Source: Candidatus Shapirobacteria bacterium
GTDB lineage: Bacteria; Patescibacteriota; Microgenomatia; UBA12405
Assembly (NCBI GenBank): GCA_028704635.1
Contig: JAQWFB010000001.1
Span: 5,541 to 69,540, forward strand
Direction: 5' to 3'
DNA length: 64,000 nucleotides
Shown here: piece after piece, positions 5,288 to 24,494 of the stretch
How the letters are laid out: each line of letters starts with the position of its first letter
Numbering within the stretch: the first letter of the stretch is position 1
Translations under genes and position numbers: made by a program
Notes under the pieces: generated by a model
Database searches by the model: none
What the model saw: only the letters and a program-made list of their open reading frames with translations
Told to the model about the DNA's origin: nothing

Positions 5288-5809
5288 ATGGAAAATACAA
5301 TCGAACTATTACCAAAAAACTTTAATATTTCAAAAGATGAAACTGTTTTAATTTGTTTAAAAGGAACAAACAAAGAATGGTTAATTTGTACAGATAAAAA
5401 ACTCTATATTTTAAAAAGAGGATTTATGACTGGCCACCTCGCTGGAGACAGTAATTTTCAAATGCCATACAAAAATATAACTGGAGCACATACTGATTAT
5501 CATTTATTGACTGGATATTTTGAAGTAAGTACTGGTGGTATGCAAAATGTGCAAAAAAACTATTGGGCACAGGGACAAAACAGCCCACAGCAATCACCAA
5601 ATTGTGTCACAATCGCAGGAAAACCTATGCTAGAAAAATTTCGTGACGCTTGCCATTTTATTAATCAAAAGATTACAGAATTCGCCACTTCCAACAATAC
5701 ACCGACAAGTGTTGCGGATGAAATAAAAAAATATAAATCATTACTTGATGATGGTGTAATTACTCAAGAAGAATTCTCAGCCAAAAAAAAACAACTTTTA
5801 GGAATTTAA
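5288..5809 (+). CDS. bPH-like + SHOCT domain protein (hypothetical)
   Basis: C-terminal EIKKYKSLLDDGVITQEEFSAKKKQLLG matches the SHOCT short C-terminal domain. N-terminal LICLKGTNKEWLICTDKKLYILKRG resembles bacterial PH. Confidence 0.4.
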   Translation: MENTIELLPKNFNISKDETVLICLKGTNKEWLICTDKKLYILKRGFMTGHLAGDSNFQMPYKNITGAHTDYHLLTGYFEVSTGGMQNVQKNYWAQGQNSPQQSPNCVTIAGKPMLEKFRDACHFINQKITEFATSNNTPTSVADEIKKYKSLLDDGVITQEEFSAKKKQLLGI

Positions 5810-5833
5810 TTAAAATATATTTTAAAAATTATT

Positions 5834-6454
5834 TTACATTTCTTTAACTAAATTAAATTGATTTGAATTTTCACGCTTCTTTACAGCATTGTCTATATAC
5901 TTTTTGTAATTGTAATTTTTAATAAATTCATCAAAAGAAACAAGAGAAATGTAAGAATCTTTTAACTCATCATATACATTAGTGCATTGATGTAATTTAT
6001 ACGAATCTTTAATATTCATCATATTCTTTCTTACTAAATTTTCAAAATTTTTAATCGCTGTTAAAGGACAATTTTTAGAACATCGACAACAATTAAAAAT
6101 TCCCATTAAATAAGATTCTGCTTCTTTTGTATATAAAGCAACAACCCCATTTGTTCTATTATTTTCTCTATCCTCTAAGGAATATCGCAACTCATCATAT
6201 AACCAATCATCAATTTGATTATTACCATTTCTATCATAATTAATTGCATTTGGTGTAAGAATACAAATTGTTACAGATGTCTCTTTTAATTTACCGTAAA
6301 GGTATTCTTTAATAGTTTTTTCGGTTTGATTAGATCTATCTTCGTTTTCAGAATAGTTATTTATTGCAACAGTATCATCAAATAAATCATCCAATTCTTT
6401 CTTGTAATTGTTTCCATCACTAAATCTAAAAGATATAAACACATTTGTTGCCAT
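5834..6454 (-). CDS. TIR-domain protein (ThsB/DUF1863-like)
   Basis: N-terminal betaA VFISFRFSDG. Downstream SVTICILTPNAI, then DDWLYDELRYSL (W-x-x-E putative catalytic Glu helix). The start overlaps the stop of the upstream 3-TM gene (ATGA at 6454). Confidence 0.55.
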   Translation of the reverse strand: MATNVFISFRFSDGNNYKKELDDLFDDTVAINNYSENEDRSNQTEKTIKEYLYGKLKETSVTICILTPNAINYDRNGNNQIDDWLYDELRYSLEDRENNRTNGVVALYTKEAESYLMGIFNCCRCSKNCPLTAIKNFENLVRKNMMNIKDSYKLHQCTNVYDELKDSYISLVSFDEFIKNYNYKKYIDNAVKKRENSNQFNLVKEM

Positions 6455-6972
6455 TAGTATTGTTTAAATAAATAATAAAAATTTTCATTTCTAAAAGTAT
6501 TCTCTTTTTGGTTAATAAAAGTGTCATTTTTCCAGTAAATATCAATTTTATTAATATTTGAATAAAAAAATCCAAACAAAATTAATATTAATAACGGAAT
6601 ATAAAAAATATTCAATGTCTTCGAAAACATTGAATTAAGCCAACTATTTTTATTTTTTCTATAGTGTTCTGCTTTTAATGAGTAGTCAATTTTTTTGTCA
6701 TCTTTAATCAATCTAACCTCATCATAAAGTGCACGATAACATCTTTCTGTCGATAAAAAATAACCATCTAAAATCCAAAAAATTAAAATTATACAGATGG
6801 AGAATATAAAACAAAGATCATTTGAATCTTTAAACATGAAAGTAAATAACCCAACAATCAAAGTTATGGTCCACCCTTTTAACATAAAAAGATTATTACC
6901 CATACGAGTTACAATCGCCTGAATAAATTCCAAATGTTTTTGTTTATTAGTCATATAATTAACAGACACCAT
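6454..6972 (-). CDS. small 3-TM membrane protein co-transcribed with the TIR gene (candidate effector)
   Basis: Three predicted hydrophobic helices. There is 4-bp overlap with the downstream TIR ORF. Confidence 0.45.
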   Translation of the reverse strand: MVSVNYMTNKQKHLEFIQAIVTRMGNNLFMLKGWTITLIVGLFTFMFKDSNDLCFIFSICIILIFWILDGYFLSTERCYRALYDEVRLIKDDKKIDYSLKAEHYRKNKNSWLNSMFSKTLNIFYIPLLILILFGFFYSNINKIDIYWKNDTFINQKENTFRNENFYYLFKQY

Positions 6973-7075
6973 ACTTAATATTTCAAAGAGATTCTATCTA
7001 CTACCTATATAGTCAGTCAATATTGCAAAATATATCAAAATTTCATTTTGCAATTATTCCGCGGAGTAAAGTGTT

Positions 7076-7112
7076 ATTTTTCTCACCCCAACCTTAAAAG
7101 TTGCACTCATGG
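7076..7112. repeat. copy 1 of ttatttttctcacccc(a/g)accttaaaagttgcactcatg repeat
   Basis: Matches 26619-26656 at ~35/37 positions. Confidence 0.55.
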
Positions 7113-7128
7113 ATTATAAATCAAAAAA

Positions 7129-7152
7129 AATCCCCTAAAGCAGGGGATTTTT
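7129..7152. terminator. A-tract / hairpin (atcccct-aaagc-aggggat) / T-tract element, repeat family copy 2
   Basis: Same hairpin as 5138-5161. It lies immediately downstream of repeat 7076-7112. Confidence 0.4.
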
Positions 7153-7494
7153 GTATAAAGCGGGCCCTAGTGAACTATGTCAGCAACTACTATCAACATA
7201 ATCCAGGCTATAATTGCCTACTAGGATAGCTTTTCATGAAACATCAGGCCCCTTCCCTTTCTTATACGATTCCTATCTAAAAAACCATATTTTAATTGTG
7301 TTTTTTTACTATCCCTTACTAAGGATCCAAATCTTGCAAGTAATCTTTATTTTCCTTATAGATAAACACGACCACTTATTACTAAGTCGATTAGATAGCT
7401 TTGAGGGGGTGTGGGGAGAGTGTAGTTAGATTTTAAGGAAGTGATATTTTCAAAAAACCAAAAATTTTAAAACATGTGAATAAATTATAGTCAA

Positions 7495-8577
7495 TCAGTC
7501 ACCTATTGATTCCAGAATTGCTTTTGCAGTTAACTCTCCAAGTCTTGGAGGCACTGCATTTCCAATTTGTTTCGCAATATCACCAAAATTGCCTATAAAA
7601 ATAAAATCATCTGGAAATGTTTGTAGTCTAGCTGCTTCCCTTAAACTAATGGCCCTATCCTGTTCTGGATGTCCGAATCTACCTTTTGTAATCATACCGC
7701 ACCCTCCAGTCATGGTTGGAGATGGAGCGTCCCATCTCATTCGACCATAAACATCTTTATGTCCTGTGGTATTTTTATGACAGGTAAGAATTAATTTTTC
7801 TGGCCATGAAGTACGATCACCACCATTTTGTGGTGTATTTTTTATTCTTTGAAGGTTTATTTCTGCAAGTGATGCTGAACGGTGGAGCTTATCATAATTA
7901 TATGTTTCTCCTGCCTCGATTTTCGGTAAATCACCAATAGTGTTCTTAACCGTCATCCAAACTTTTAAAGTAGATTCTTTTTTAGCAGGATCGGCATGTG
8001 TTTGAGATAGAAAAACTGGTTCTTTTTTTCCTTTTATACCGATAATGACAACTCTTCTTCTGTGCTGTGGTACTCCATAATCAGCGGTATCGATTACATC
8101 ATATTTCAGTTTATAACCCATTTCTTTAATGTCCCCCAACACATCTTCAAGGATATTTTTGCCGATACCTTTAGCTAATCCTGGAACGTTTTCCATTACA
8201 AAAGCAACTGGTTTAACCTGTTTAATTATTTTAACCACTTCAAAAATAAGTTTGTTTCTAGGATCATTTCTTCTCTGGCTATTTCTTCGGGCATTAGAAA
8301 AACCTTGACAGGGAGGGCAGGCAATTAATACGATTTTGTCCTTTTTGGAGAGATTTCCAGCCTTCATAAGGTATTTACCGTCAACGTCACAGATGCTTTC
8401 TTTTATAACTTTACAATCCTTAAAATTAGCTTCAAATGATTTGCCTGCTATTTCATTGTTGTCAACGGCTACCCGAATATCAAAACCCATGTTTTTAAAT
8501 CCGAGAGCTGAACCTCCACACCCTGAAAATAGATCGATTACTTTATAGTTACTGTTCACATCATAAATATATAGCAT
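7495..8577 (-). CDS. DNA (cytosine-5)-methyltransferase
   Basis: Motif I DLFSGCGG, motif IV ACPPCQGFS, motif VI ENV, motif X QIGNAVPP. Confidence 0.85.
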   Translation of the reverse strand: MLYIYDVNSNYKVIDLFSGCGGSALGFKNMGFDIRVAVDNNEIAGKSFEANFKDCKVIKESICDVDGKYLMKAGNLSKKDKIVLIACPPCQGFSNARRNSQRRNDPRNKLIFEVVKIIKQVKPVAFVMENVPGLAKGIGKNILEDVLGDIKEMGYKLKYDVIDTADYGVPQHRRRVVIIGIKGKKEPVFLSQTHADPAKKESTLKVWMTVKNTIGDLPKIEAGETYNYDKLHRSASLAEINLQRIKNTPQNGGDRTSWPEKLILTCHKNTTGHKDVYGRMRWDAPSPTMTGGCGMITKGRFGHPEQDRAISLREAARLQTFPDDFIFIGNFGDIAKQIGNAVPPRLGELTAKAILESIGD

Positions 8578-8680
8578 TTCCTAGTGTAATTTCACAGACA
8601 ATTTTATTTTGATGATAAATCTAAAATTATTCCGAGGGTAATTTTACATGGTTTGATGTTACAATATTGCAATAATCAAG

Positions 8681-11317
8681 ATGAATTGGGAAAAAATTGA
8701 AGAATCCATTTTATTGTCATATCCTTTTTTCCGGAACTTAAATAGCAAAACTCAATTAACTTCCGGAGTACATCCTTTTGTGTTGTTGAATTCCTACCTA
8801 TGTATAAAATCCATTGAAACTTCACTTCCAAAAAAATTGTTAATAATTCTGCCTTTTAAAGCAGACATCGCCAAATGGGTATCTGTTGTGACAACTTTAA
8901 AACTTCTTAAGGAAGATTCCCTTGCTAACCAAGACATTAAAATAGAATATTTACCTGGGCAAAAACTACTTATCAATGGAGTTGTAGTCGAGTTTGTTGG
9001 AGAAGAAAATAATCCTTCCTACGGTTACCGCTTTATCATACGTTACTGGAACGATGATAAAAAACACCCTGGATACATTACGGACCATATACCTTGTGAA
9101 AATAACCAGATGTTTGAGATGGCAGACCAGAATTGTGAAATTAGTTCATATTCTAAGGTTGTAAAAGCATTGTTAGGTCTTGAAGAATCAAGTGTAGTTA
9201 CAAATGATATTCTTGGAATAAATTTTAGAAATACAATATCTAGATTTGAACGTAATGTAATCTTGGTATCTGGAATTGGAGAGACAAAAAGATTTGCGGA
9301 AATGAATACTGTTAACAATGTATTGGTCAGTGAGTTATTTCCGTGGGGTAAGTTGGATTACACGGGCGACACAACAGCATTATTTTATAAGGAAAAAGCA
9401 AAACCAAACTGCATCATTAGTTCCAATATGTTCGGAATCGAAGAATATATATCAAAAAAAGGAAAAAATTATGGAATTATTATTGATGGTATCGATAAAT
9501 GCACTGACAATCTCCAACAATTAGATGATTTGATCGACTCTGGAAATAGGATTGTTGTATTTTGCGACAGAAATGAACTCGATGAAGCGAATAAGTATTT
9601 AATTAATAGGGATTTCCTCGTTTGGTCATGGGATAAAAAGATGATTGCAGGGTTAACTTCAACTTTGTCTATTGGAGACATTAATAAGTCTTTCAATACC
9701 CAGTTAAAAAATTACTCTGAGTTGGGTATTAAGGTATTAAAAAGTAATAACCCAATAATTGAAGAATTAATCAATATTTCGTCTCCTGTTTTAAAAATTA
9801 ATCCAGAAGATTCAGGTCTTATTAATAAATTTAAATTCAATCTACTCTCTGCGATTAATGAAATAATTAGATTGGGATTTATACCCGACAACGAATATTT
9901 AACTAGTTTTCTAAAAAAATTGGAGGAATTAAAAAAAGAATACGGATTAATTAGCAACATGGCCAGCAATGATACTCGTGTTGGACTTACGAAAATTTTA
10001 GACATGTTAACAAATCTGAAAATTAATGATTTTGCTCACCCAGAAAGCAAAGCAAATAAAATTATTTCCTGGTTTAACAACTTGAGTGGTGACGACAAAA
10101 ATAAAAAATACATAACAATCTTTGATGACTTGAACCCCGCTCGACTTCACCAAGATCACTTCGCAAATTCAATCGATAAAGAAATAAAACTAGAAACGAT
10201 AGCTTTTGAAGATTTTATTATCTCCCACAATTTTGAAGAAGATGCCGTTATTTTTACCGGATGGCCAGGTAAAAAAAAGATGAAAATAATATCAAATATC
10301 AATGCGGCAAAAAATATGTTGTTTTTTCTGTATCCTCAGGAACAAAAATGGTTCAACTCATATATCAGAAACACCGAAAAATATAGCTTTGGAAAAAATG
10401 AACTTGATAAATTTGCGGAATATCTGGATGTACCAGTTATTGAAGAATTAAAAACAGCATTAACAGAGTACTCTGATCAAACGGAAAACATAATTGGAAT
10501 TGATGACATAACAGAGGCACAAGATACCTTATTAATAAGCTCATATTTACCAGACGATAATGAATGTAACAATCCAATACCGTCTAAATTAGTTGTTTTT
10601 AATAGAGATTATTTCTGGTACTCAACTGAGAACCATCGATTCATTGTTATTACGGATTTGATTGCTAATTGTACTGATGGACAAATAAAAACTTCAAGAC
10701 CAGAGGGTCTTCATGTGGGCGATACTGTTTTGATTAGGGAGTCAAATAAAGATTTAATCAGGGAAATTGCTGAAATTGATTTAAAAAATAGAGATGAAGA
10801 ATGGGCTATCGAAAAATCTAAAGTCTGGAAAGATGCACTGAAAACCGAATACAAAAAACAATATGAAAATATTTTTCGTTTAATCAGTGTGTTAAGAGAA
10901 GCTGGATGTAATAGACAAGTTCAAACCATTAAGCTTTGGCTCTTTGAAGATGACCGTATTGGTTTAAGGGATGAAAAGGATCTCGAATATATAGCGAAAG
11001 CAACTGGTTCAAAGGAAATGATTAATAACCTGGACAAAATTCGTGAAGCAATACATCTTGTCCGGGCAGCACATTTAAGAGCAGGTGACACACTCGCGAA
11101 AGAGCTTTTGAACCGATTGCCCGATGTTCTTAATGGTACAGGAAATAAAATCAGGTCAAGTATCGATCTTGGAGAATATGGTACAGCCTTTTTACTTAAG
11201 GTTATTGTTGTTGCCGATGACTATATTGATATCGAAAGTATTAAAGTTAATAAGTTACTAAATAAAAACAAATCAAATGATCAGACTCATACCTCCACTG
11301 TTGTCTTCAGAAAATAA
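8681..11317 (+). CDS. large hypothetical protein, first gene of the helicase/DUF1998 operon (DrmE-like by position only)
   Basis: 878 aa with no recognisable catalytic motif. The 3' end overlaps the next gene by 41 nt. Confidence 0.5.
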   Translation: MNWEKIEESILLSYPFFRNLNSKTQLTSGVHPFVLLNSYLCIKSIETSLPKKLLIILPFKADIAKWVSVVTTLKLLKEDSLANQDIKIEYLPGQKLLINGVVVEFVGEENNPSYGYRFIIRYWNDDKKHPGYITDHIPCENNQMFEMADQNCEISSYSKVVKALLGLEESSVVTNDILGINFRNTISRFERNVILVSGIGETKRFAEMNTVNNVLVSELFPWGKLDYTGDTTALFYKEKAKPNCIISSNMFGIEEYISKKGKNYGIIIDGIDKCTDNLQQLDDLIDSGNRIVVFCDRNELDEANKYLINRDFLVWSWDKKMIAGLTSTLSIGDINKSFNTQLKNYSELGIKVLKSNNPIIEELINISSPVLKINPEDSGLINKFKFNLLSAINEIIRLGFIPDNEYLTSFLKKLEELKKEYGLISNMASNDTRVGLTKILDMLTNLKINDFAHPESKANKIISWFNNLSGDDKNKKYITIFDDLNPARLHQDHFANSIDKEIKLETIAFEDFIISHNFEEDAVIFTGWPGKKKMKIISNINAAKNMLFFLYPQEQKWFNSYIRNTEKYSFGKNELDKFAEYLDVPVIEELKTALTEYSDQTENIIGIDDITEAQDTLLISSYLPDDNECNNPIPSKLVVFNRDYFWYSTENHRFIVITDLIANCTDGQIKTSRPEGLHVGDTVLIRESNKDLIREIAEIDLKNRDEEWAIEKSKVWKDALKTEYKKQYENIFRLISVLREAGCNRQVQTIKLWLFEDDRIGLRDEKDLEYIAKATGSKEMINNLDKIREAIHLVRAAHLRAGDTLAKELLNRLPDVLNGTGNKIRSSIDLGEYGTAFLLKVIVVADDYIDIESIKVNKLLNKNKSNDQTHTSTVVFRK

Positions 11318-13001
11318 AAGTAGCGGAGAGAGAAAACTATTTAATCTTTTTCTAAAAAGTGGAAATACTGATGATTGGACTGTTCTTCACTCATTAAATC
11401 TGAGTGAACATATAAATCAAATATGTGGAGAAATTGATTTTCTTGTTTTAGCCCCAAATTTAGGTATATTTTGCCTTGAGGTAAAGTCTGGGAACGTAAC
11501 ATGTCATGATGGGCTATGGATATATCGGGATAGATTTGGTGTTGACCATAAAAGCACCAAAGGTCCTTTCGTTCAAGTCAAAGATAATATGTTTAGTTTG
11601 ATCGAGTGGGTTAAAAAAAAGACTTCTAATAATCCAAAATTAATAAACATGTTATTCGGCTACGGAGTAGTATTTCCCGATGTTTCATTCAACATCGATA
11701 GTATCGAGTATGATCGATCATCCGTGTTTGACAATATGACTGGTTCTATCGAATCTTTTATCACAACTCTAGCTGAAAATACCAAAAAAAAAGAAGAGAA
11801 CTTAGGTAGAAAAAGATATTTACCATCACTAAAAGATATTGAAACTCTGGTCAGTATTCTAAGGCCTGAATTTGAAGTTTTCAGGAGCACTAAGGACATT
11901 TTAAATGATACCGAAGAAAAAATTAGTTCTTTCACGGAAGAACAATATAAATGTCTTGATTCTCTTAAAGATAATCCCCGTTGTTTATTTAATGGAGCCG
12001 CTGGAACTGGAAAGACGGTCATTGCCGTCGAATCCGTTAAAAGAAAAGTTTTTGATGAAAAGAGAGTGTTATTTATCTGTTTCAATTCTTTATTAAGTGA
12101 ATGGTTAAAATCCAGATTCACAGACAGTGAAAAAAAGTTTGTCACAATCGAAACACTTCCAGGTTATATGGAGAAAATAGCAGCCATTCCAGAATATATT
12201 AAACGCGACAACTATTATTTTGACCACGTATTACCAACAAAAGCCGCAGAATTGATTGTAAAAGACTTTAGTAAATTTGACTATCTGATCGTTGATGAGG
12301 GTCAGGACATAATTAGCGAAGTAAATTTTGCTTTTCTTGATAAGGTCTTAAAAAATGGAATAGCAAAAGGTTTCTGGGAAATTTATTGTGATATGGACCG
12401 TCAGTCATTATTTGCAAAACTATCACCAAAATTAATGAGAGAAAAAATCTCAAAATGGTCACCCAATGGTTTTGTATCTTATAAACTGAACATCAATTGC
12501 CGTAATACTAAAAATATTGCCGAGGAAATTTCTCTGGTATGCGGGTTTGAAAAAGACCAACTATTGCCAGGTAATATTGAGGGAAATCTACCGGTAAACT
12601 ATAAGTTTGTTGATCATGATCAGATTCCTTTTGAAATAGACAAAATAGTGGATTTTGTTTACTCAAAAAAGATTCCTTTAAACAGGATAACAGTGCTATC
12701 ACCAAAAAAATATCAGCTATCTGAGGCCTCCAAGATAAAAAGTAAATGTACAGTTTTAGAACGTAACAATCTATTTTCAATACCAGTCGATTCAATAACA
12801 TTTTCAACTATCGGAAAATTTAAAGGGTTGGAAAATTCTTTTATAGTTGTCACAGACTTTGATTCTATTGAAGAAGACTGTTTGGAAAAACTTTACGTCG
12901 CCATGTCTAGGGCAAAATATGGTCTATATTTGATTATGGGAAAAGAAGCCGAAAAAGATTATGATTCCATTGTTAGTAAAGTTAATAGCGTACAAAGATA
13001 A
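11277..13001 (+). CDS. NERD nuclease-related domain fused to UvrD/PcrA-like SF1 helicase core
   Basis: NERD: GEIDFLVLAPNLGIFCLEVKSG. Walker A NGAAGTGKTV, Walker B LIVDEGQDI, C-terminal LYVAMSRAKYGLYLI (UvrD_C motif). Confidence 0.7.
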   Translation: MIRLIPPLLSSENKSSGERKLFNLFLKSGNTDDWTVLHSLNLSEHINQICGEIDFLVLAPNLGIFCLEVKSGNVTCHDGLWIYRDRFGVDHKSTKGPFVQVKDNMFSLIEWVKKKTSNNPKLINMLFGYGVVFPDVSFNIDSIEYDRSSVFDNMTGSIESFITTLAENTKKKEENLGRKRYLPSLKDIETLVSILRPEFEVFRSTKDILNDTEEKISSFTEEQYKCLDSLKDNPRCLFNGAAGTGKTVIAVESVKRKVFDEKRVLFICFNSLLSEWLKSRFTDSEKKFVTIETLPGYMEKIAAIPEYIKRDNYYFDHVLPTKAAELIVKDFSKFDYLIVDEGQDIISEVNFAFLDKVLKNGIAKGFWEIYCDMDRQSLFAKLSPKLMREKISKWSPNGFVSYKLNINCRNTKNIAEEISLVCGFEKDQLLPGNIEGNLPVNYKFVDHDQIPFEIDKIVDFVYSKKIPLNRITVLSPKKYQLSEASKIKSKCTVLERNNLFSIPVDSITFSTIGKFKGLENSFIVVTDFDSIEEDCLEKLYVAMSRAKYGLYLIMGKEAEKDYDSIVSKVNSVQR

Positions 13002-16000
13002 ATGCCTTTTAAAGACCAATTAATCGATTTTCTTAAAAAGGGTCTAATGGGACCAAATCCAACAGAGGGTAATGTTCAGGAAAACGGCGAAGAAATAATA
13101 ATAGGTAGCAATCCTTGTGATAGATATTCACTTGGAGTTCTTTTCCCGCAAAGTTCAAATACTCCTAAAAAAGATGAAATTGAGGATATTGGAAGTGAAG
13201 AAGCAACTGAAGAAGTAGTTAATCTCGCAAATTCCATGGCTCCTTCTGCTATGGGATTTAGTTGTGGATTAATATCCCCATTTAATGATCTGATAATAGA
13301 AATAAAGGCTGGGACTTATCAAAAAGTCGATGATTATGAGAGTTCTGGAAGATACGCTTTTTTAAGGCATCAGATAAATTATGAAATAAAAATCAGCAAA
13401 GAATCATTATCAGCATGTGATGGTATTCTGCATTTTCCCATAAAAAACGGTGATGAGGAAACAAAATTAGGTTTAATACTTTTGAGAAGAAAAATTGGAT
13501 CCTTAACTCATGGAGAAGACCTGTTTACATTTTCTTTAGTCAATTATAATAACGAAGGACGTGATGAAAAATGTTTTTTCCAATGTCAGTTTATCGTTAA
13601 GTCTGTTGACGGAAAACCCTGTTTTGCACCTTACCCCGATATTTCTGAGGCTTTTGGCAACGACTATGACCGTCTTTTAAATGCATATCTGTATCGGGAT
13701 AAAAAGACTTTCGCAATAGGGCATGGATGCTCTCCGCTATGGAATGACACAAAGAACGATGTCTCAGAAATATGTGCAAATGCAATACCTTCATATGAAA
13801 TGAAACCAGTTATCCCTACAACTATTGAAGGTTGTTCACTTGGAATGTATGAAATGAGTGATGAAGGTAAAGTTGAAAATATTTTTGAAAAGATAGAAAC
13901 ACTTTGCCGTGAATATGAAAATTGGATTAATGGTCAACAAAGAATAATTGAAGTAGAAACAAATATAAAGTATAAAGAAATCGGTCAAAAAAACATCCTT
14001 AATTGTAAGATGTGTCTTGATAGAATGCGTGAGGGATTTACATTGTTGAAAACCGATTCGGTAGTATTGGAAGCGTTCCGTTTAATGAATCGGGCTATGT
14101 TGTTACAACAATTGCATTACAAAATTGATTTAAGGATTTGGGATGATAATGACGACATTGTCCAAGTGAAAATGCCTAAGTTGAACGACAAAAGCACCTG
14201 GCCTGACAAAGTTGGTAATTGGTATCCGTTTCAGTTGGCTTTTATCTTAATGAACTTGGACTCTATGTCTGATCCCAGCAGTAAATATCGGGAAATGGTC
14301 GACCTGATTTGGTTTCCTACTGGAGGCGGAAAGACTGAAGCATATTTAGGCTTGACTGCTTTTACTATCTTTCTAAAGAGATTGACTGATAAAAATGATG
14401 ACGGAACAACTGTTTTAATGCGATATACCCTGAGACTACTTACAAATCAGCAATTTCAAAGAGCGTCATCCTTAATATGTTCATGCGAATACATTAGGTC
14501 ATCAATTCCACAAAAATTGGGTGAAACAAAAATTACTATTGGCCTTTGGGCAGGTAGTGGTTTAACTCCTAATACTAGACCAGAAGCAGTCAGTAAATTT
14601 AAAAAATTGCTACAGGGACAGGATGATGTAAATTGTTTTTTAATCGATAAATGTCCATGGTGCGGTGCTCAAATGGGTTTTATTAAGAAAAAAAACATAA
14701 AAGCTAAAGGTTATAGGCAAATGTTACACCCGTCAACTGTTATTTTTCGCTGCTCAGACCAGGAATGTTTTTTTTCACATGAGGAAAGTCCTCTACCTTT
14801 ATTAGTAATTGATGAAGATATTTATGATAATCCTCCATCGTTGGTTATCGGAACAATAGATAAATTTGCAATGTTAGTTTGGAAACCAGAATCTGTACGA
14901 AAAATATTTGGATTTAGGGATAACGGAAGAGTTTTGCCGCCATCATTAATAATCCAAGATGAATTGCATTTGATTTCTGGCCCCCTTGGGTCGATTGCTG
15001 GAATGTACGAAGTATTAATTGAAGAATTATGCTCCCAGAAAAATAGTAGTGGAATAATAAAACCTAAAATTGTTGCCTCTACTGCTACTGTTAGTAGGGC
15101 CAAAGAACAGGTGAATGCCCTTTATGGCCGAGACGTTTTTATTCTTCCGCCACCAGCAACTAAAGCAAATGATTCTTTTTTTGCTAAAGAAGCCGTCGAT
15201 TTGCCAGGAAGAACTTATTTAGGCATCTATGCTCCATCGTTAAGTCATGCAACCGCTCATGTCAGAACGGTTTCTTTCCTATTGGAGGGAGTAAAATATA
15301 TACCAGCAGATCCGACTGTTAAAAACTATTATTGGACTTTATTGGATTACTTTAATAGTCTTCGGGAACTTGGGCATGCCAAAACAAGGATATCAGCAGA
15401 TATTCCAGAGTATCTGAATATTGTATATAGTTATCTTGGCCTGTTTCATGCTTCAATAGAGGAAAAGGCTAAACGAAGATTTATTAATCCAAGCAAATGT
15501 CCAGAGTTAACCAGTCGTGTAGACGAAATTTCTAAAGCTCTTAATGATCTAAAAGAACCATATTTATTGGAAAATTCTAAAGCATTGGATATTTGTCTTT
15601 GTACTAATATGATTTCCGTTGGCATTGATATTGATAGGTTAGGTTTAATGACTGTAGCTGGACAACCAAAGACAACAGCCGAATATATCCAAGCCACCAG
15701 CCGTGTTGGAAGAAGTAGTAAGGGACCAGGTTTGGTTGTAGCTATATTTAATACCCCTAAACCAAGAGATAGATCTCACTATGAAAATTTTCTCTCTTAC
15801 CACTCAAAAATTTATAGCTTTGTTGAGCCTACCAGCATCACTCCATTTTCCAGACCAGCAAGAGAAAGAGCTTTGCATGCACTTTTAATCGGATATATCA
15901 GATATTTTGGTTCCACAGACAATCTTTTATCTCCAAAAAACATTAGTGATCAGAATATATTTACCCGTTTTACAGAAATGATTAAAAATAGAGTTATAAA

Positions 16001-16265
16001 AATTGACCCAGATGAAATGGAAGGATGTTTAACAGAAATTGATAAATTAAAACGGCGTTTGTTTAGATTACATGCCGAAAAATACTACGGTAACGGTATA
16101 GAAAGATGGGCAAATTGTCTTATCTATCCCTATGGTGTAGTTCCTCCAGATTCTGATACAAGAAACAGAATGTGGCCCACACTTCAGTCGATGAGAAATG
16201 TAGACCTGACTTGTCAGATAGAACCAGATACTTATTATTTAGATCCTCCAGATGTCACAATATAG
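13002..16265 (+). CDS. DrmA-like DExH-box SF2 helicase with internal Cys4 insertion
   Basis: Motif I WFPTGGGKTEAYL, motif II IIQDELHLISG, motif III STAT, motifs V/VI GIDIDRLG...YIQATSRVGRS. A CPWCGAQ...FRCSDQEC zinc knuckle lies between motifs I and II. The start abuts the previous stop. Confidence 0.7.
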   Translation: MPFKDQLIDFLKKGLMGPNPTEGNVQENGEEIIIGSNPCDRYSLGVLFPQSSNTPKKDEIEDIGSEEATEEVVNLANSMAPSAMGFSCGLISPFNDLIIEIKAGTYQKVDDYESSGRYAFLRHQINYEIKISKESLSACDGILHFPIKNGDEETKLGLILLRRKIGSLTHGEDLFTFSLVNYNNEGRDEKCFFQCQFIVKSVDGKPCFAPYPDISEAFGNDYDRLLNAYLYRDKKTFAIGHGCSPLWNDTKNDVSEICANAIPSYEMKPVIPTTIEGCSLGMYEMSDEGKVENIFEKIETLCREYENWINGQQRIIEVETNIKYKEIGQKNILNCKMCLDRMREGFTLLKTDSVVLEAFRLMNRAMLLQQLHYKIDLRIWDDNDDIVQVKMPKLNDKSTWPDKVGNWYPFQLAFILMNLDSMSDPSSKYREMVDLIWFPTGGGKTEAYLGLTAFTIFLKRLTDKNDDGTTVLMRYTLRLLTNQQFQRASSLICSCEYIRSSIPQKLGETKITIGLWAGSGLTPNTRPEAVSKFKKLLQGQDDVNCFLIDKCPWCGAQMGFIKKKNIKAKGYRQMLHPSTVIFRCSDQECFFSHEESPLPLLVIDEDIYDNPPSLVIGTIDKFAMLVWKPESVRKIFGFRDNGRVLPPSLIIQDELHLISGPLGSIAGMYEVLIEELCSQKNSSGIIKPKIVASTATVSRAKEQVNALYGRDVFILPPPATKANDSFFAKEAVDLPGRTYLGIYAPSLSHATAHVRTVSFLLEGVKYIPADPTVKNYYWTLLDYFNSLRELGHAKTRISADIPEYLNIVYSYLGLFHASIEEKAKRRFINPSKCPELTSRVDEISKALNDLKEPYLLENSKALDICLCTNMISVGIDIDRLGLMTVAGQPKTTAEYIQATSRVGRSSKGPGLVVAIFNTPKPRDRSHYENFLSYHSKIYSFVEPTSITPFSRPARERALHALLIGYIRYFGSTDNLLSPKNISDQNIFTRFTEMIKNRVIKIDPDEMEGCLTEIDKLKRRLFRLHAEKYYGNGIERWANCLIYPYGVVPPDSDTRNRMWPTLQSMRNVDLTCQIEPDTYYLDPPDVTI

Positions 16266-18093
16266 AAAAAAAAGACCAGTAAGACAGGGACAACTTATAT
16301 CACCATGGGGTGTAGGACAAATGATACCTTTTCCAGAAGGGGACTCTCTCATGATAGCTGGACTTGATGCTTGGCAGGAAAAATATGGACATCCAGGAGA
16401 AGAGAAATACTTTGTCCAGGAGTTAAGATTGGAGAAAAGATTAGGGGTTAAACATTTTAGATTACCCCCTAATTTTATAGAGGAAGAAAGGGATCAGGCC
16501 AAGACCGTGCCTGCGATCAGATTTCCACAATGGCACTATTGCAAACACTGTGGTTCTATGGAGAAGTTAAGTATTTTTAGTACCCAATTACCCCACTGTA
16601 AAGGATTGCCATATGATGATATAAGTTGTCAAAATACACCTGAAAAAAGAAGGCTAAAGATGATACCAGTCCGCTTTGTAGTTATCTGTCCTGATGGACA
16701 TATCGATGATTTTCCATTTATGGAATGGGTGCATAGTAAAAGTAAAATGGTAGAAACCCCAGATTGTCGGTTAAGATACAAAATTAGAAGTGCTGGAAGT
16801 TCACTCGGTGCCATCAAATTAATCTGTAGTTGTGGAGCCAAGTCCAGTATGCATGGGTCATTTAATAAAGGGGGCTTAAAAAATATTTTAAAATGTAAAG
16901 GGTATAAACCGTGGCTAGGTAAAATTGAAGAATTCGATTCCGAACCGTGTGATAAGGAGTTGACTGTTGCTCAAAAAGGCGGATCAAACGTATATTTTCC
17001 AAATGTAATAAGCTCAATTTATATTCCCAGCGAATTTAGACCTGAGATTCATGAAAAATACCTTGATGAATATTGGAGTTACTTGACTGGGGTTTTAAAA
17101 AATGACGTATTAGATTTTGAAAGGTTTAAAAACGTTGCACTTAAAAACGGATTAGATCCCCAGGAGTTTTATGATAATGGGTTAAAACGCTATAAGGAAG
17201 CCACTAATTACGATGAGAGCCTTACAGAAAACGATATCGAAAAGGAAATTAGAAAACAAGAATATATTTACCTCACAGGAAATAAAAATATTGACAACGA
17301 TTATTTGACTCAAAAAACGTCACCTATTGATGGTTATAGTAAATTAATCCAAAGTTTTTGCAACCAAATATCTCTTGTTCACCGTCTTAAGGAAACCAGA
17401 GTTTTTACAGGATTTTCAAGATTAAACTCTAATGATGGTAAAACTTTATCTCAAAGAAAAAGTGAATTGTCATTAAAAAAAATTGATTGGCTTCCAGCTA
17501 TAACTGTTAGCGGTGAAGGTATTTTTCTAAAATTTAAAGACAGCCTAATCAAAACGTGGGAAACAAATGCTCTTGTAAAAGAAAGGGCAGAAATTATTAA
17601 TAACAACTTTGCTAATTATGCCCGCCAATTCAATTTACCCGAAAGAACAGTTAGCCCTGGATACATAATGGTCCACACTTTTTCCCATATTTTAATTAAT
17701 GAACTTAGCCTTGTTTGTGGATATGGAAGTTCGTCTTTAAGAGAGAGGATATATTTTAATGAAGATCAGGGCGAAAGTTATTTTGGTTTGTTGATCTACA
17801 CAGCATCTGGAGATTCTGAAGGATCTCTTGGTGGCCTAGTAAAACAGGGGTTACCCAGTCGACTAAACGAAATGATAATGTCCGCCTTAAATAAAGCAAG
17901 TTGGTGCTCGGTCGATCCAATCTGTATTGAAAGCCGTGGTCAAGGATTGGGATCGTGCAATTTAGCCGCATGCCACAACTGTGTCCTTCTACCAGAAACA
18001 TCCTGCGAACAATCAAATAGATTACTCGACCGTGCCATGTTAATCGGTACATTGGAAAACCATGAGATTGGTTTCTTTTCTAATATGGAATAA
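16252..18093 (+). CDS. DUF1998-family protein (DrmB-like), N-terminal multi-Cys region
   Basis: C-terminal WCSVDPICIESRGQGLGSCNLAACHNCVLLPETSCEQSNRLLDRAMLIG is the DUF1998 hallmark. There are 14 nt of overlap with the upstream helicase. Confidence 0.7.
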   Translation: MSQYRKKRPVRQGQLISPWGVGQMIPFPEGDSLMIAGLDAWQEKYGHPGEEKYFVQELRLEKRLGVKHFRLPPNFIEEERDQAKTVPAIRFPQWHYCKHCGSMEKLSIFSTQLPHCKGLPYDDISCQNTPEKRRLKMIPVRFVVICPDGHIDDFPFMEWVHSKSKMVETPDCRLRYKIRSAGSSLGAIKLICSCGAKSSMHGSFNKGGLKNILKCKGYKPWLGKIEEFDSEPCDKELTVAQKGGSNVYFPNVISSIYIPSEFRPEIHEKYLDEYWSYLTGVLKNDVLDFERFKNVALKNGLDPQEFYDNGLKRYKEATNYDESLTENDIEKEIRKQEYIYLTGNKNIDNDYLTQKTSPIDGYSKLIQSFCNQISLVHRLKETRVFTGFSRLNSNDGKTLSQRKSELSLKKIDWLPAITVSGEGIFLKFKDSLIKTWETNALVKERAEIINNNFANYARQFNLPERTVSPGYIMVHTFSHILINELSLVCGYGSSSLRERIYFNEDQGESYFGLLIYTASGDSEGSLGGLVKQGLPSRLNEMIMSALNKASWCSVDPICIESRGQGLGSCNLAACHNCVLLPETSCEQSNRLLDRAMLIGTLENHEIGFFSNME

Positions 18094-18274
18094 CATAAAG
18101 TAAATCCTTTATTGAGAAGTCTTAATAAAAAATGACAAATCGATATTTTAATCAGTGTGCCAAACAAATCATTTAAAAAAAAAAACGGTTCATCACGAAC
18201 AAATATAACCACTAAATAATAATCTCCGAACAACTATTTTGTGTATGATAGTAAAGTAGTAAATTACGTTCTTA

Positions 18275-19471
18275 TTACTTATCCTCATAATCCTTTAATG
18301 TGTACTCTTCTTGATATTCTTTGATTTTGTTTAAAATTTTATTTTGACTGTCTACGGCGTAGACTTTTACAATTCCCATCGTACCAGGAGATGGTGCTCC
18401 TCCACCTGATAATTGTGATTTAACTACTATATTATTTCCAATCACCTTAACTCTAATGTCAGTTCCATCTTCAATTAAAAGATTTGTATTATCATCGACT
18501 ATAGTTGATATGGATAACGTTTGACCGTGACAGCTTGAACAACCTTCTCCATTTAAAAACAAAGCTTGTAGGGTTAATTTTCCAACAGTAAATATTTGAC
18601 TTTTTAAAATTACTTCCCTATATTCATTAACTTTAATTAAAGTTTTGTTTTGATTATCTACTTCGTAGACTTTTACATTAATTGCGTCTTCTCCTGTTCC
18701 CACCATGTCTGATTTGAATCTAACCTCAATAGTATTTTTGTCTACTCTAACATTGATTCCATAACCTTTTTCTTTTAAAAACAAATTATCTTTATCAAAA
18801 ATATATAGTTCCTGGGAAACACTACTAGAAATAGGTATCGTCACTAAACTTTCTAGTTTTGACTCATCAACAACTAATTTAGTTTTATTCAATTTCCATA
18901 GACTCTGATTACCTACCAACTTTGAAATTAATGAATAGCTGTTTAAATATTTACTATCTTCCTTAGACAAGGTGTCATCACGGCGTGGATTGATGTTTTC
19001 CTTAATCTCTCCAGTTATTGGATTCACTATTAAACGGTAAGAAGCCGAATAACTTCCACGGTCTGGTTCATTGTTAGACAACTCAATATTTATTCCATCT
19101 ACTACCTTGGCCGAAATTAAACTAGCATTGGCCTGACCCTGTTGGAATAGTTTGGGATAATTATCCTTTCTTACAGTTAAATCAGGCTTAAAATTGTTCT
19201 CACTTTTATTACCCTCAGTGGGATTAATAAAAATAGAACCTTCTGTTAATTGAATTATTAAAACTCCTTTAGGAGTATCTAGGGAAACACTATAATCCAA
19301 TGGTTTGCTTTTATCCTCAGGAACTACAGTTTTTGAATTGTTTTCAATATCAGTAATAACTTCTCTTGGAATGTGTCGACTTATCTTTTCTCTGACTTTA
19401 CTAAAAAAACCAGCAACTAAACAAAAAACAAAGAATAGTATTAGAATTGAAAATAATTTATTTTTAGTCAT
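18275..19471 (-). CDS. secreted/lipid-anchored hypothetical protein
   Basis: N-terminal signal/TM LFSILILFFVFCLVAGFF, then a beta-rich sequence with no catalytic motif. Confidence 0.4.
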   Translation of the reverse strand: MTKNKLFSILILFFVFCLVAGFFSKVREKISRHIPREVITDIENNSKTVVPEDKSKPLDYSVSLDTPKGVLIIQLTEGSIFINPTEGNKSENNFKPDLTVRKDNYPKLFQQGQANASLISAKVVDGINIELSNNEPDRGSYSASYRLIVNPITGEIKENINPRRDDTLSKEDSKYLNSYSLISKLVGNQSLWKLNKTKLVVDESKLESLVTIPISSSVSQELYIFDKDNLFLKEKGYGINVRVDKNTIEVRFKSDMVGTGEDAINVKVYEVDNQNKTLIKVNEYREVILKSQIFTVGKLTLQALFLNGEGCSSCHGQTLSISTIVDDNTNLLIEDGTDIRVKVIGNNIVVKSQLSGGGAPSPGTMGIVKVYAVDSQNKILNKIKEYQEEYTLKDYEDK

Positions 19472-19590
19472 AGCTTAATTTACTCTAATCATTTCATTAA
19501 CTACTAGTTAGTTAAAATATACCATTTTTAGGCTTAATTATTAACCAACAGTTAATAAACTAATTCCAGTCAAATTGTTACCTTCTATCA

Positions 19591-19809
19591 ATGGAAGACC
19601 GTAAGGTAACGAATAAAGACTTAAAATTTGGTAAGAGACTTCAACGAGTCAGAAAATCGGCTGGTTTCACTCAAGAAAAACTAGCAGAGGGGACAAGACT
19701 AAGCACAACCTTCATAGGATTACTTGAAATTGGTCAAAGACGACCAAGTATGAAAACACTCCAAAAAATCGCATCAACATTGAAAGTAGATGTAAAAGAT
19801 TTGTTTTGA
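19591..19809 (+). CDS. XRE-family HTH transcriptional regulator
   Basis: FTQEKLAEGTRLSTTFIGLLEIGQRRPSMKTLQKIASTL is a Cro/C1-type HTH. It is a paralog of 26391-26600 (shared C-terminal D[IV]KDLF). Confidence 0.7.
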   Translation: MEDRKVTNKDLKFGKRLQRVRKSAGFTQEKLAEGTRLSTTFIGLLEIGQRRPSMKTLQKIASTLKVDVKDLF

Positions 19810-19852
19810 CCGACTAGACTTTATTAACCACTGGTTTATAATTAGGTTAATA

Positions 19853-20167
19853 ATGATATTTCCAAATAATAGTTGGCTAGAAAAACATTGGTGGCATAGA
19901 CTAGCAAAAATCTTCAGAATAATTTTTTCTTTATTTTTTATTTTTGTTGCGATATATTATGTCGCTTTTGTTCCGGTTGTTGATCCTGCCATGAACATTT
20001 CTATTCCAATTTGCGCTGGAATATCAATATTAATTGCCATCTTTGGTTTTCCTCTTTTGTATAAAATTTTACTGTATGTTTTTGTAAGTGATTGGAAAAC
20101 AAAAATTAAACCCGATAAAAAAAGTTCAGAACAAACTAAAGCTAAATGGAATCATACGATAATGTAA
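19853..20167 (+). CDS. small 2-TM membrane protein (hypothetical)
   Basis: Hydrophobic helices. Confidence 0.35.
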   Translation: MIFPNNSWLEKHWWHRLAKIFRIIFSLFFIFVAIYYVAFVPVVDPAMNISIPICAGISILIAIFGFPLLYKILLYVFVSDWKTKIKPDKKSSEQTKAKWNHTIM

Positions 20168-20360
20168 GTTAAAGTCTACCCGCGTAGACAATTACATAAA
20201 ATTTTAAACAATCAATTATTGTTCGTCTTAGTATTGCTGGCAACGAGACAATCATAAATCTTAAATAAGTTTAGGTCGTATTAACACCAAATCTGGCTTC
20301 ACTAAATGACCTAGAATCGTTGGAATATCATTAATCGAGTATAATTAGGTTAGATTAATA

Positions 20361-21053
20361 TTGATATTAAAAATGGACAACAATGTTAGTAAACTGGTTG
20401 TACTAATAACCAAGCAACGAAAATTTATTGAGAGTAATTTTGAGAAATATCGGGAAGAGATTTGCAATCTTGGTGATGACAAAATATTGGAATTTCTTGG
20501 GAGTACCGAAAGTGAAATTGCTTTATGGGAAAAGAGAGTCATTAGGGTGTTAAAAACTTTTAACAAACAAAACTACCTAATCCGTTTTAGTCATCCAAAG
20601 GATATTAAGTCATCCCACAACGCCTATATTACGGAAGCTATCGATTGCAAAGTCATGGCTCAACTTAATGAATTAAACGATATTTTAACTGAACTCGAAA
20701 ATAATAATTTACCAATAAAATCCAAAAAAATTATTCACCAGATTGAATACACTGAAAATCGTGAAATTTTATTAGACGGAAAAGTAATTCATCGATTCCA
20801 ATCAGATTCACCAGGCGAAAATCTTTTTAGCTACTTAATTAATAATCCAAATAAAGTTATTGAATTAAAAGAAATTGAAAAAAACGAAGGTAGAGATGAT
20901 ATTTCTAAAGGAATTCATCAAAAAATTAGAGACTTAGGTTTCAAAGGAAAATTAAAGACGATGTTTTTTCCAGGATTAGATGAACAAAAAATCCAATTTA
21001 TCAACCCAATCACCAAAGCTTACTTAAACGAGAATCACATCTTTGAAACTTAA
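20361..21053 (+). CDS. hypothetical protein
   Basis: 230-aa ORF inside the mobile element with no motif. Confidence 0.35.
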   Translation: MILKMDNNVSKLVVLITKQRKFIESNFEKYREEICNLGDDKILEFLGSTESEIALWEKRVIRVLKTFNKQNYLIRFSHPKDIKSSHNAYITEAIDCKVMAQLNELNDILTELENNNLPIKSKKIIHQIEYTENREILLDGKVIHRFQSDSPGENLFSYLINNPNKVIELKEIEKNEGRDDISKGIHQKIRDLGFKGKLKTMFFPGLDEQKIQFINPITKAYLNENHIFET

Positions 21054-21302
21054 CCAATATCGATAATGTGAAACAGTGTGAAATGATGAGAAATCCCTAA
21101 AGTAGGGCATAACTGATTATACAATCTGTTATGTCAATAAATTTAAATGAAGATTGGCTCAATAGTGAGCTTAAAAAAGAGGTACTCGATCTCTTTCAAC
21201 CTTTGTATAAACACCCATTGACTGAAACTGAAGTAACAAATATTGCCAACACTCTCGCCAACACAGCCGAATTATGGATTAAATTCAACTGGAGGATCGA
21301 TC

Positions 21303-21536
21303 ATGCCAACTAATAACTATAGAACCAAGGATCTAGCTGAATCAGCCACCCTGCTTACCTTAGGACAAAAAATTATTGATGTTGAAAGAATAGACCGTAT
21401 TTGCTGGTTTGTTTTTGCCGATTCAAAAAAATGCCAAAAAATAGCTAATCAATTTTGGTATGACCAATGTCTCGTCGATGCCAAAACTTATTATGATTCG
21501 ATTGTCAGGTTAAAAAATAGAATATTTTCTAGCTAA
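21303..21536 (+). CDS. DUF5659-like small protein typical of integrative elements
   Basis: YRTKDLAESATLLTLGQKIIDVERIDRICWFVFADS...FWYDQ pattern (DL.LAa.L..lG..l / kv.FvF / .Yw). The internal Met start is inferred. Confidence 0.4.
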   Translation: MPTNNYRTKDLAESATLLTLGQKIIDVERIDRICWFVFADSKKCQKIANQFWYDQCLVDAKTYYDSIVRLKNRIFSS

Positions 21537-21555
21537 GAAGACCAAGCAGACAAAT

Positions 21556-22050
21556 ATGATTAAAATTAATAAAAAAGGCTGCACCTGGATTCCAAACTAT
21601 TGGATTGTCGGTGATGACATTTCTGACGCCGCTTTTCGAACTCTTTCAATCATTAGAAGTTACAACTTTGATCAAATTTACCCATCCGTAAAAAGAATTG
21701 CTGAAAGAAGAGGTAAGAGTAGAAGTACCATTTTTCTCCACCTTAAAGAACTAAAGGAGAAGAAATATATTACAACCAAAAGATCAGGATACTCTACTTC
21801 AAATATATACAAATTCAGTAGTCCAGAAAATTGGACTAATGAATCAAACCCGACATCAAATAATGATACTTCTATCGTCCAGGAAACTGGTCTTCAGTCG
21901 TCCAATAATCCAGACCCTAATAATAGTCTTAATAAAGAATTAAAAAATAGTCAAAATCCTTTAAGGGGAGAAGAATTAGAAAAGGCTAAAGAAAATCTTT
22001 TTAATAAACTCCCATGGGTAAACAAAAACAAAAATCATCTTAAAAAGTAA
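21556..22050 (+). CDS. winged-helix DNA-binding protein (replication/excision accessory-like)
   Basis: IAERRGKSRSTIFLHLKELKEKKYITTKR wHTH. Confidence 0.35.
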   Translation: MIKINKKGCTWIPNYWIVGDDISDAAFRTLSIIRSYNFDQIYPSVKRIAERRGKSRSTIFLHLKELKEKKYITTKRSGYSTSNIYKFSSPENWTNESNPTSNNDTSIVQETGLQSSNNPDPNNSLNKELKNSQNPLRGEELEKAKENLFNKLPWVNKNKNHLKK

Positions 22051-22091
22051 TATAATTTTATTAGGGAAACCAATAATAAAATCTCAAATTT

Positions 22092-23699
22092 TTGGAATAT
22101 TCGGTTATATCAATTAATATCAATATGAAAACAAATCAAGACAATTCGTTAAAGTATTGCCAATACTGTCGAAAATCATCCGAGAGTAAAGAAAAACAGG
22201 CCTTATCGATTCCTGATCAAATCAAGGTTTGTGGAGAATATGCTGTCAAAAACGAACTAAATATTGTTGCAAAAATAGAAGAATCAAAATCTTCTTACAA
22301 ACCCCATATCAGACCTGAATTCGATAAAATTTTAAAAATGATTGGCGATAAAAAAATTGATGCAATTCTGACATGGAAACTTGATCGACTATGCCGTAAT
22401 CCAGAAGAAGGTGGAATTCTACTTCAATTACTTCAAGACGGAAAAATAAAAGAAATTAGGACACCAATGGGAGATATTTATACCCAAGAAAGTGATCATT
22501 TAATTCTCCAAATTCATTTTGGAATGGCAAATCAATATTCACGAGCAATCAGTCAAAACGTTCGTCGTGCTCTCGTATGTAAAGCCGAAAGGGGAGAGTT
22601 TACTAAACCTGCTCCACTTGGCTATGAAGGAATCGGTGAAAGTAAAAGTCGTTTGATTAAACCTCATAAATTTGAAGCACCACTTCTAGTTCAAGCTTAT
22701 GAATTAGCTAAATCTGGTCGGTACTCACTAAGTAATATTCAAAAATATTTAAAAGATAACGGTTTAAAAACCAAAAGAGGGAAAGATTTAAGCAAAAGCC
22801 ATTTATATCGAATCCTTACCAGTTCAATTTATTATGGTGTTTTCAACCATAATGGCATTGCTTATCAAGGTAACTATGAACCACTTATCAATAAGTCAAC
22901 CTTTGATGAAGTTCAAATCGCTTTGGGTGTTAGGTCTAAGCCCAAGAAATTAATTTGGGAGTCGGTTTACAATGGCTTATTCTTCTGTCCAGATTGTGGC
23001 TGTGCCATAACCACTGTAAACAAAAAGAAGTTAATTAAAAAAACTAATAAATATGAAACTTACACTTATCTAGTGTGTACTCATCGAAAGGGAAATTGCC
23101 AACAAAAACCAATATCTGCAGATGATTTTGATAAACAAATTATGGCAAAAATCGGGCCACTTAAACTTACCGAAAGAAAATGGGAATTAGCATTAAAACT
23201 ATTTCGAGCCAAAAATGCCAATCAAAATCAAACCCAATCTAAATTTATTGATAACCTTCATTTGCAACTCAAGATTCATCAAGAAAAATTAAATCGACTG
23301 ATTAATATGAGAGCAGGAGACGAAATTACTGCTGAAGAGTTCAAAGAACAAAAATTAATTATCCTTAATGAACAAACACGAATCAGTGAGGCAATCAATC
23401 GATACAACGAAACCAATCAAAATTGGTTGGAACTGTCAGAAAACTTCATAAATAAGGTATTCTTAGCCAAAAAAATATTATCCGATGGTTTACCAGAAGA
23501 AAAAAAGAAACTGATTGATGAGGTCGGTCGGAACTTATTTCTAAACAATAAAAAAGTGGAACTTACCTTAAAAGAACCATACATAGCCATGACAAATCCA
23601 GCTATTTCTAATAATATGCGGGCAATGTGGTCCGAACTTGGAACTTATTTAGATAGGAATGATACAATCAAATATGAATTGTCCACATTGTTTACATAG
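22092..23699 (+). CDS. large serine recombinase (integrase), element 1
   Basis: Resolvase N-domain YCRKSSESKEKQ (Ser nucleophile motif) and LDRLCRN. Recombinase domain, zinc ribbon CPDCGC...C, then a coiled-coil tail. The 3' end spans the right att-like repeat. Confidence 0.85.
   Translation: MEYSVISININMKTNQDNSLKYCQYCRKSSESKEKQALSIPDQIKVCGEYAVKNELNIVAKIEESKSSYKPHIRPEFDKILKMIGDKKIDAILTWKLDRLCRNPEEGGILLQLLQDGKIKEIRTPMGDIYTQESDHLILQIHFGMANQYSRAISQNVRRALVCKAERGEFTKPAPLGYEGIGESKSRLIKPHKFEAPLLVQAYELAKSGRYSLSNIQKYLKDNGLKTKRGKDLSKSHLYRILTSSIYYGVFNHNGIAYQGNYEPLINKSTFDEVQIALGVRSKPKKLIWESVYNGLFFCPDCGCAITTVNKKKLIKKTNKYETYTYLVCTHRKGNCQQKPISADDFDKQIMAKIGPLKLTERKWELALKLFRAKNANQNQTQSKFIDNLHLQLKIHQEKLNRLINMRAGDEITAEEFKEQKLIILNEQTRISEAINRYNETNQNWLELSENFINKVFLAKKILSDGLPEEKKKLIDEVGRNLFLNNKKVELTLKEPYIAMTNPAISNNMRAMWSELGTYLDRNDTIKYELSTLFT
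23623..23655. repeat. right copy of 33-bp direct repeat (att-like)
   Basis: caatgtggtccgaacttggaacttatttagata matches 5173-5205. Confidence 0.6.
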
Positions 23700-24354: not shown

Positions 24355-24494
24355 AATATATAATGTGTATAAAATTCTCTTTTGATAAATTATTGACAAA
24401 GATTTTATAAAATGTAAGACTTTTATAATAAAAAGTAGAAAAGATGATTATATTTGATATAATTCGACACAGTATTATTTAAAAAATAAAAAAA

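Follow-up and report, generated by a model that had tools for sequence, protein, structure and literature searches.

Two small genes on the minus strand of a Candidatus Shapirobacteria MAG, one for a TIR-domain protein and the other for a small membrane protein, raise the question of whether they form a defence pair of the Thoeris kind and, if so, of which type. The DNA that was analysed is a stretch of 64,000 nucleotides, in the following called the window. An earlier note on this DNA had read the genes as a minimal Thoeris-like pair composed of a TIR signal generator and a small membrane effector, and this reading is borne out by the homology of the two proteins to ThsB and ThsF and by the conserved pairing of their genes. 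These are the components of type V Thoeris, described by Yirmiya et al. (bioRxiv 10.64898/2025.12.03.692087) as ThsB together with ThsF, an effector with three TM helices that is annotated as DUF2270. According to this preprint, type V Thoeris was validated with the system of B. thuringiensis DAR 81934, whose ThsB produces 3'cADPR on infection, and 3'cADPR added to cells carrying this system is toxic; phage-dependent synthesis of 3'cADPR, toxicity triggered by 3'cADPR and protection are known for the B. thuringiensis system only (10.64898/2025.12.03.692087). It is highly likely that the pair in the window is a type V Thoeris system, with thsF preceding thsB in one transcription unit and the two genes coupled via a TAATG junction. 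With this assignment a gene pair that has so far been annotated as “hypothetical protein” and “molecular chaperone Tir” finds its place in a defined anti-phage system. The kind of system is already known: the locus corresponds to the described and validated type V Thoeris and to the PADLOC candidate PDC-M50, and it brings no new principle; what modest interest it has lies in its CPR host, an effector swap, an altered Cys/His cluster in ThsB and a tail of ThsF.

The two genes and their genomic setting

The gene thsB (5834-6454, minus strand) encodes the TIR-like signal-producing protein of 206 aa and was identified by PADLOC, Pfam, PDB and fold comparison, and thsF (6454-6972, minus strand) encodes the three-TM effector, with a longest ORF of 172 aa, identified by PADLOC, BLASTP, hydropathy and AlphaFold2. 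Both ORFs lie where the earlier note had placed them, and the highly significant homologues found for each of the two proteins rule out a chance ORF in either case. ThsB and ThsF are each present in one copy in the window. The junction between the genes had been described as a 4-bp ATGA overlap, which has to be corrected: it reads CAA TAC TAA TGG, so that the stop codon TAA of thsF and the start codon ATG of thsB have one base in common (TAATG) and the overlap is 1 nt. Despite this 1-nt overlap, the tight translational coupling of thsF and thsB still holds. The start of thsF is probably the second ATG at 6954, leading to a protein of 166 aa, because its homologues, and likewise the identical protein as annotated by NCBI, start at this second Met; the conserved ThsF residues named below are numbered by the 172-aa ORF. 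Directly upstream of thsF, a consensus scan detected a promoter-like site (TTGACT-18 nt-TAGAAT, 6991-7020, minus strand) with 10 of 12 consensus matches, which is a pattern match only, and promoter-like sites in the scanned region as a whole show no excess over shuffled sequence. Further upstream, a 12-bp stem followed by a T tract forms an intrinsic-terminator-like hairpin (7126-7152, minus strand), one of two such hairpins found in the scanned region vs. 0.6 expected from shuffles. Taken as a pattern match only, this hairpin would end the transcript of the upstream C5-methyltransferase gene and set the 5' boundary of the thsF-thsB unit. Due to the promoter-like site and the terminator-like hairpin, both of them pattern matches, the pair therefore looks like a transcription unit of its own.

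The pair adjoins a DISARM class-2-like island that extends from 7495 to 18093. It starts immediately upstream of thsF, on the same minus strand, with the gene for a DrmMII-like C5 methyltransferase (7495-8577), followed by DrmE (8681-11317), a NERD and UvrD-like helicase protein (11277-13001; best PADLOC match RTasNERD-Hel, 4.6e-44) that is located between DrmE and DrmA, then DrmA itself (13002-16265) and DrmB (16252-18093); no DrmC was identified within the island. On the other side, a convergent plus-strand gene (5288-5809) terminates 24 bp away from the stop codon of thsB; its 173-aa product contains bPH_3 and SHOCT domains and has no PADLOC match. Further downstream, weak defence-related matches were found for a CasR/CARF-like HTH protein (21556-22050), a protein resembling PD-T7-4 (23659-24354, E=7e-17) and, on the minus strand, a mad2-like methyltransferase (25565-26290). 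The earlier note had placed the pair and the helicase/DUF1998 system in one mobile element; of this, the position beside the DISARM-like island is borne out, and in the search for such an element, which covered tRNAs, the nearest tRNAs were located at 1198-1347.

The G+C content drops to 24.5% over 6001-7000, compared to a window average of ~32%, a dip that is consistent with horizontal acquisition of the thsF-thsB cassette. A cassette acquired in this way may also be inactive or decaying, with no current function in the reduced CPR genome. Such a fate would fit the low G+C, the host, which is an uncultured Shapirobacteria MAG, and the first ATG of the TM ORF, which differs from the usual start of the family. 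However, both ORFs are intact and tightly coupled, the family-invariant residues are all retained in ThsB as well as in ThsF, a promoter-like site lies upstream of thsF, and related CPR genomes have the same thsF-thsB pair. We therefore regard decay as very improbable and a functional type V pair as the preferred reading.

The TIR-like protein ThsB

The TIR features for which the 206-aa ORF had originally been singled out, the N-terminal strand VFISFRFSDG and the DDWLYDELRYSL segment, are both present, and the TIR-like profile match that was to be expected for 5834-6454 was found with Pfam ThsB_TIR as well as with the PADLOC ThsB model. The Pfam match is narrow, with 21.8 bits vs. a cut-off of 21.2, and covers residues 6-71 only. 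The PADLOC model PDLC00438 matches over the full length (1-206 of 206) with E=2e-82. Moreover, the family profile matches the sequence of a solved structure, PDB 9vyl (ThsB1 of Bacillus dafuensis, BdThsB1), over the full length with E=5.7e-17. The same structure, BdThsB1 with NAD, is the best Foldseek match (TM 0.74) of the AlphaFold2 model of the window protein (pLDDT 86.3, pTM 0.85), followed by EcThsB and BcThsB. Pfam, PADLOC, the sequence search against solved structures and the fold thus agree in identifying the 206-aa TIR protein as a ThsB. A TIR protein clearly belonging to the family of the window ThsB is also entered as “DUF2270 - Type V” in Table S1 of the preprint (10.64898/2025.12.03.692087). 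A comparison by genome name with its Tables S1 and S3, both in truncated form, gave no match.

The protein consists of a TIR core (residues ~1-110) with the putative catalytic E88 and a C-terminal part of ~95 residues with the invariant cysteines C122, C125 and C157. The earlier note had pointed to a putative catalytic Glu, and this residue is indeed conserved: in an hhalign alignment W84 and E88 of the window ThsB stand opposite W81 and E85 of B. cereus ThsB (BcThsB), E85 being the catalytic Glu, and E88 is invariant in 51 of 51 close relatives and nearly invariant among the 72 divergent proteins encoded next to homologues of the TM protein. In the C-terminal part, 43 of the 51 relatives also have H120. 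Three proteins, the window ThsB and the two relatives nearest to it, show F, Y or a gap at this position and have gained C129 and H155. The loss of H120 together with the gain of C129 and H155 may be a swap of metal-site ligands in the presumed sensor half of the protein.

A TIR protein next to a membrane protein does not automatically imply signalling in this direction. The roles could be reversed, with the TIR protein as an NAD+-depleting effector, as in CBASS, Pycsar and pAgo, and the membrane protein as a sensor, an anchor or an antitoxin-like regulator. Many bacterial TIR proteins are NADase effectors, according to the preprint (10.64898/2025.12.03.692087), and the window protein has a weak Pfam match to the CAP12/Pycsar TIR family (E=0.068). 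However, membership of the ThsB family is given by a full-length PADLOC match and by the fold, and close relatives of this ThsB are partners of ThsA effectors. Furthermore, the TIR protein of the validated type V system makes 3'cADPR, and 3'cADPR alone sickens cells carrying the system, as stated in the same preprint (10.64898/2025.12.03.692087). Reversed roles thus have very little probability, and ThsB can be assumed to be the signal-producing partner of the pair.

The three-TM partner ThsF

The TM protein of the window matches all four PADLOC PDC-M50A models, the best with E=2.7e-44. In a BLASTP comparison with ThsF of B. thuringiensis (L087:4773-5198) it shows 38% identity and 64% positives over 129 aa (E=6e-36). 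In the reverse direction, B. thuringiensis ThsF scores 175 bits on an HMM made from relatives of the window protein, and it matches the same four PDC-M50A models. The B. thuringiensis protein was reached via the ThsB sequence in Table S1, which led to a 100% identical protein (P0241), from there to its contig (L087) and to the adjoining 141-aa gene; this gene is taken as the effector of the paper because the IMG gene ids are consecutive and the three-TM architecture agrees with the description, not because of a published sequence. Judged by these sequence comparisons, the TM protein of the window is clearly homologous to the effector of the validated type V Thoeris, ThsF.

The published label DUF2270 is of little help for finding such proteins. 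The window protein has no match to PF10028 (DUF2270) by hmmscan at E<=1, and in the ThsF family weak sub-threshold matches occur in 6 of 25 members, the best with E=0.0036. The validated ThsF of B. thuringiensis has no PF10028 match by hmmscan either, so that with HMMER the presence or absence of this match does not discriminate between members and non-members of type V. This means that the Pfam DUF2270 label used with HMMER misses ThsF, and that pipelines relying on this label will overlook type V systems. For the window protein, Pfam gave sub-threshold matches to DUF3278 and DUF4064 only, NCBIfam assigned no family, and in the literature no paper describing “PDC-M50” was found. SLATT identity was considered, as the layout of helix, two TM segments and helix is similar, and was rejected, because none of 25 family members has a SLATT Pfam match at E<=10. 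As a side observation, B. thuringiensis ThsF (L087:4773-5198) aligns weakly but nearly end to end with PF24838 “8xMP” (E=0.012). This octameric membrane protein family could be a remote relative, which would be relevant to the oligomeric model of ThsF.

The three TM helices that had been predicted for the partner of the TIR protein are confirmed by hydropathy, with hydrophobic segments at ~31-47, 53-73 and 119-137, and AlphaFold2 agrees. The model, based on 99 homologues, has three long helices (3-42, 46-82, 112-164) at a pLDDT of 84.7. ThsF thus begins with a basic amphipathic helix, which is followed by TM1 and TM2, a basic helix and a loop in the cytoplasm, TM3 and a C-terminal tail. The net charge is +3 in the N-terminal 33 residues and +4 in residues 75-118, and from these two basic parts an N-in orientation, a cytoplasmic loop and an outer C-terminus are therefore predicted. 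The core of the ThsF family comprises ~133 aa and is tightly conserved. In an alignment of 25 sequences K10, K12, H13, Q18, R23, W34, W66, D69, E76, R80, W111 and Y124 are invariant or nearly so; in an alignment of 99 sequences K12 falls below 90%, and R23, W34, W66, E76 and Y124 are still invariant. The tail of ~35 aa (residues ~138-172, window 6454-6560) is shared with the nearest relatives only, which have 155-176 aa vs. the 133-aa core; it has low model confidence and is predicted to be extracytoplasmic. In the preprint, ThsF is modelled by AlphaFold3 as a heptameric channel-like ring with basic pockets between the protomers (10.64898/2025.12.03.692087). The conserved K, R and H residues of ThsF are located in the N-terminal helix and in the helix after TM2, a placement that is compatible with a ring-shaped homo-oligomer with basic inter-protomer pockets. 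The earlier note had called it atypical that the TM partner has no recognisable ligand-binding domain; this judgement is outdated, as the architecture is now a named Thoeris type.

Conserved pairing, signal and relation to known Thoeris types

Members of the TM family are encoded by at least 526 species-representative genomes of many phyla, and 80 of these loci were retrieved. A same-strand gene lies downstream of the TM homologue in 72 of these 80 loci, and its product has a Pfam ThsB_TIR match in 58 of the 72 cases and a TIR_2 match in others, so that the TM gene is conserved beside TIR genes, as the interpretation as a pair demands. Same-strand upstream neighbours include 16 TIR_2 and 11 ThsB_TIR proteins, the remainder being largely restriction-modification genes. 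With our own HMM, TIR neighbours were counted at 71 of 80 loci. This count is not independent, because the HMM was built from those very neighbours, and the Pfam figure of 58 of 72 is preferred. The ThsB neighbours that are partners of ThsF range from 145 to 230 aa and belong to many ThsB clades; the same pairing is also found in the locus L089. ThsF relatives were found on 94 PLSDB plasmids, mostly conjugative plasmids of Klebsiella (40) and Escherichia (18), and are annotated as “hypothetical protein” only. The family appears to be common in Patescibacteria and on conjugative plasmids of Klebsiella and Escherichia. Relatives of the type V ThsB adjoin relatives of the window TM protein on a Priestia plasmid (CP023318, L084) and on a Klebsiella plasmid (AP022022, L085). 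On B. cereus CP053657, the plasmid protein that is most closely related to the type V ThsB is surrounded by TIR and SIR2 genes, and no ThsF is annotated beside it. Separately, we observed a contig of a Clostridiales MAG (JAFWQC010000012.1, L063, 5382-10030) with a TIR gene upstream of ThsF and a 270-aa gene downstream; ~3 kb further on, a protein closely homologous to ThsB of the window is encoded (E=2e-81). This locus looks like a Thoeris island with several ThsB proteins or several systems.

The relatives of the window ThsB have different effectors. ThsB proteins with 55-60% identity directly follow a SIR2+STALD ThsA, hence an effector of type I, which has 3'cADPR as its signal, in Carnobacterium divergens, in Streptococcus parasuis and on a metagenomic contig, and the ThsB with 76% identity (P0122), which is one of the two closest relatives, directly follows a 132-aa ThsF homologue as its partner. 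To judge by these gene neighbourhoods, an effector swap has taken place, in which one ThsB clade serves both SIR2-SLOG ThsA (type I) and ThsF. A recent effector swap supports the modular picture of signal and effector in Thoeris. Since one ThsB clade is found with effectors of type I and of type V, we infer that the signal is 3'cADPR.

The proposed mechanism is derived from the characterised systems and is connected to the window by homology, the catalytic Glu, the three-TM topology, the operon structure, the pairing and the defence-island setting. By analogy, ThsB would sense phage infection, probably via its Cys-rich C-terminal half, and the TIR active site with E88 would make an isomer of cyclic ADP-ribose from NAD+, with 3'cADPR as the most likely product. 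This signal would then bind to basic pockets of an oligomeric ThsF, formed by the conserved N-terminal helix and the helix after TM2, and the activated ThsF would compromise the membrane and thereby abort the infection. However, the same two-gene architecture could work with a signal other than 3'cADPR or with a second infection cue, if ThsB and ThsF of CPR bacteria have diverged in their ligand. In the preprint, the other of two validated type V systems, that of Bacillus sp. 1NLA3E, did not respond when 3'cADPR was added (10.64898/2025.12.03.692087), and therefore the signal may differ. The replacement of H120 and the gain of C129 and H155 in this ThsB and the two relatives nearest to it, the tail of ~35 aa that is missing from the 133-aa core family, and the many ThsB clades with which ThsF is paired (neighbours of 145-230 aa) point in the same direction. 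On the other hand, the effector of the nearest ThsB relatives, SIR2-SLOG ThsA, is the canonical receptor of 3'cADPR, the window ThsF keeps the basic and aromatic positions conserved in the family, and the residue changes in ThsB fall outside the catalytic core of the TIR domain. A deviating signal or cue is thus possible, albeit unlikely. Somewhat less likely again is that the CPR pair differs in function from other type V systems and forms a sub-variant of its own, characterised by the rewired Cys/His cluster of ThsB and the added extracytoplasmic tail of ThsF. If this were true, the sub-variant might respond to another phage cue or signal with another ADPR-derived molecule, and signalling-based abortive infection would operate in ultra-small episymbiotic bacteria. 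Our preferred reading is still a type V system with 3'cADPR as its most likely signal.

Compared with the named systems, the pair shares with type II (TM-Macro effector) and type VII (SLATT effector) the combination of a TIR signal generator with a membrane-spanning effector, but the effector of the window is far smaller than theirs and a member of another family. No Macro domain match was obtained for the TM protein in Pfam at E<=1, and the protein of 166-172 aa is fully occupied by its three TM helices and two short helices. The likeness to type I is restricted to ThsB, which is 55-60% identical to ThsA-linked ThsB proteins and has the fold of BdThsB1, EcThsB and BcThsB, whereas the effector is a three-TM ThsF that replaces the SIR2-SLOG ThsA. 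The flanking proteins scanned at 5288-16265 gave no match to SIR2 or SLOG in Pfam or to ThsA in PADLOC, and among the ORFs at 16252-29761, covered by the PADLOC scan only, there is no PADLOC match to ThsA. The matches to all four PDC-M50A models link the effector to component A of PDC-M50 in PADLOC-DB v2.0.0, a label for a computational candidate only. The closest agreement is with type V, even if four differences from the validated locus can be named: the gene order is thsF then thsB, in contrast to thsB then thsF in B. thuringiensis; the window ThsB belongs to another TIR clade and is type-I-like with 206 aa, whereas that of B. thuringiensis is N-terminally extended with 252 aa; ThsF has an extra C-terminal tail; and the host is a CPR bacterium. 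In common with type V, adjacent, co-oriented genes encode a TIR protein of the ThsB kind together with a three-TM effector of ~135-170 aa, and the pair lies in a defence island.
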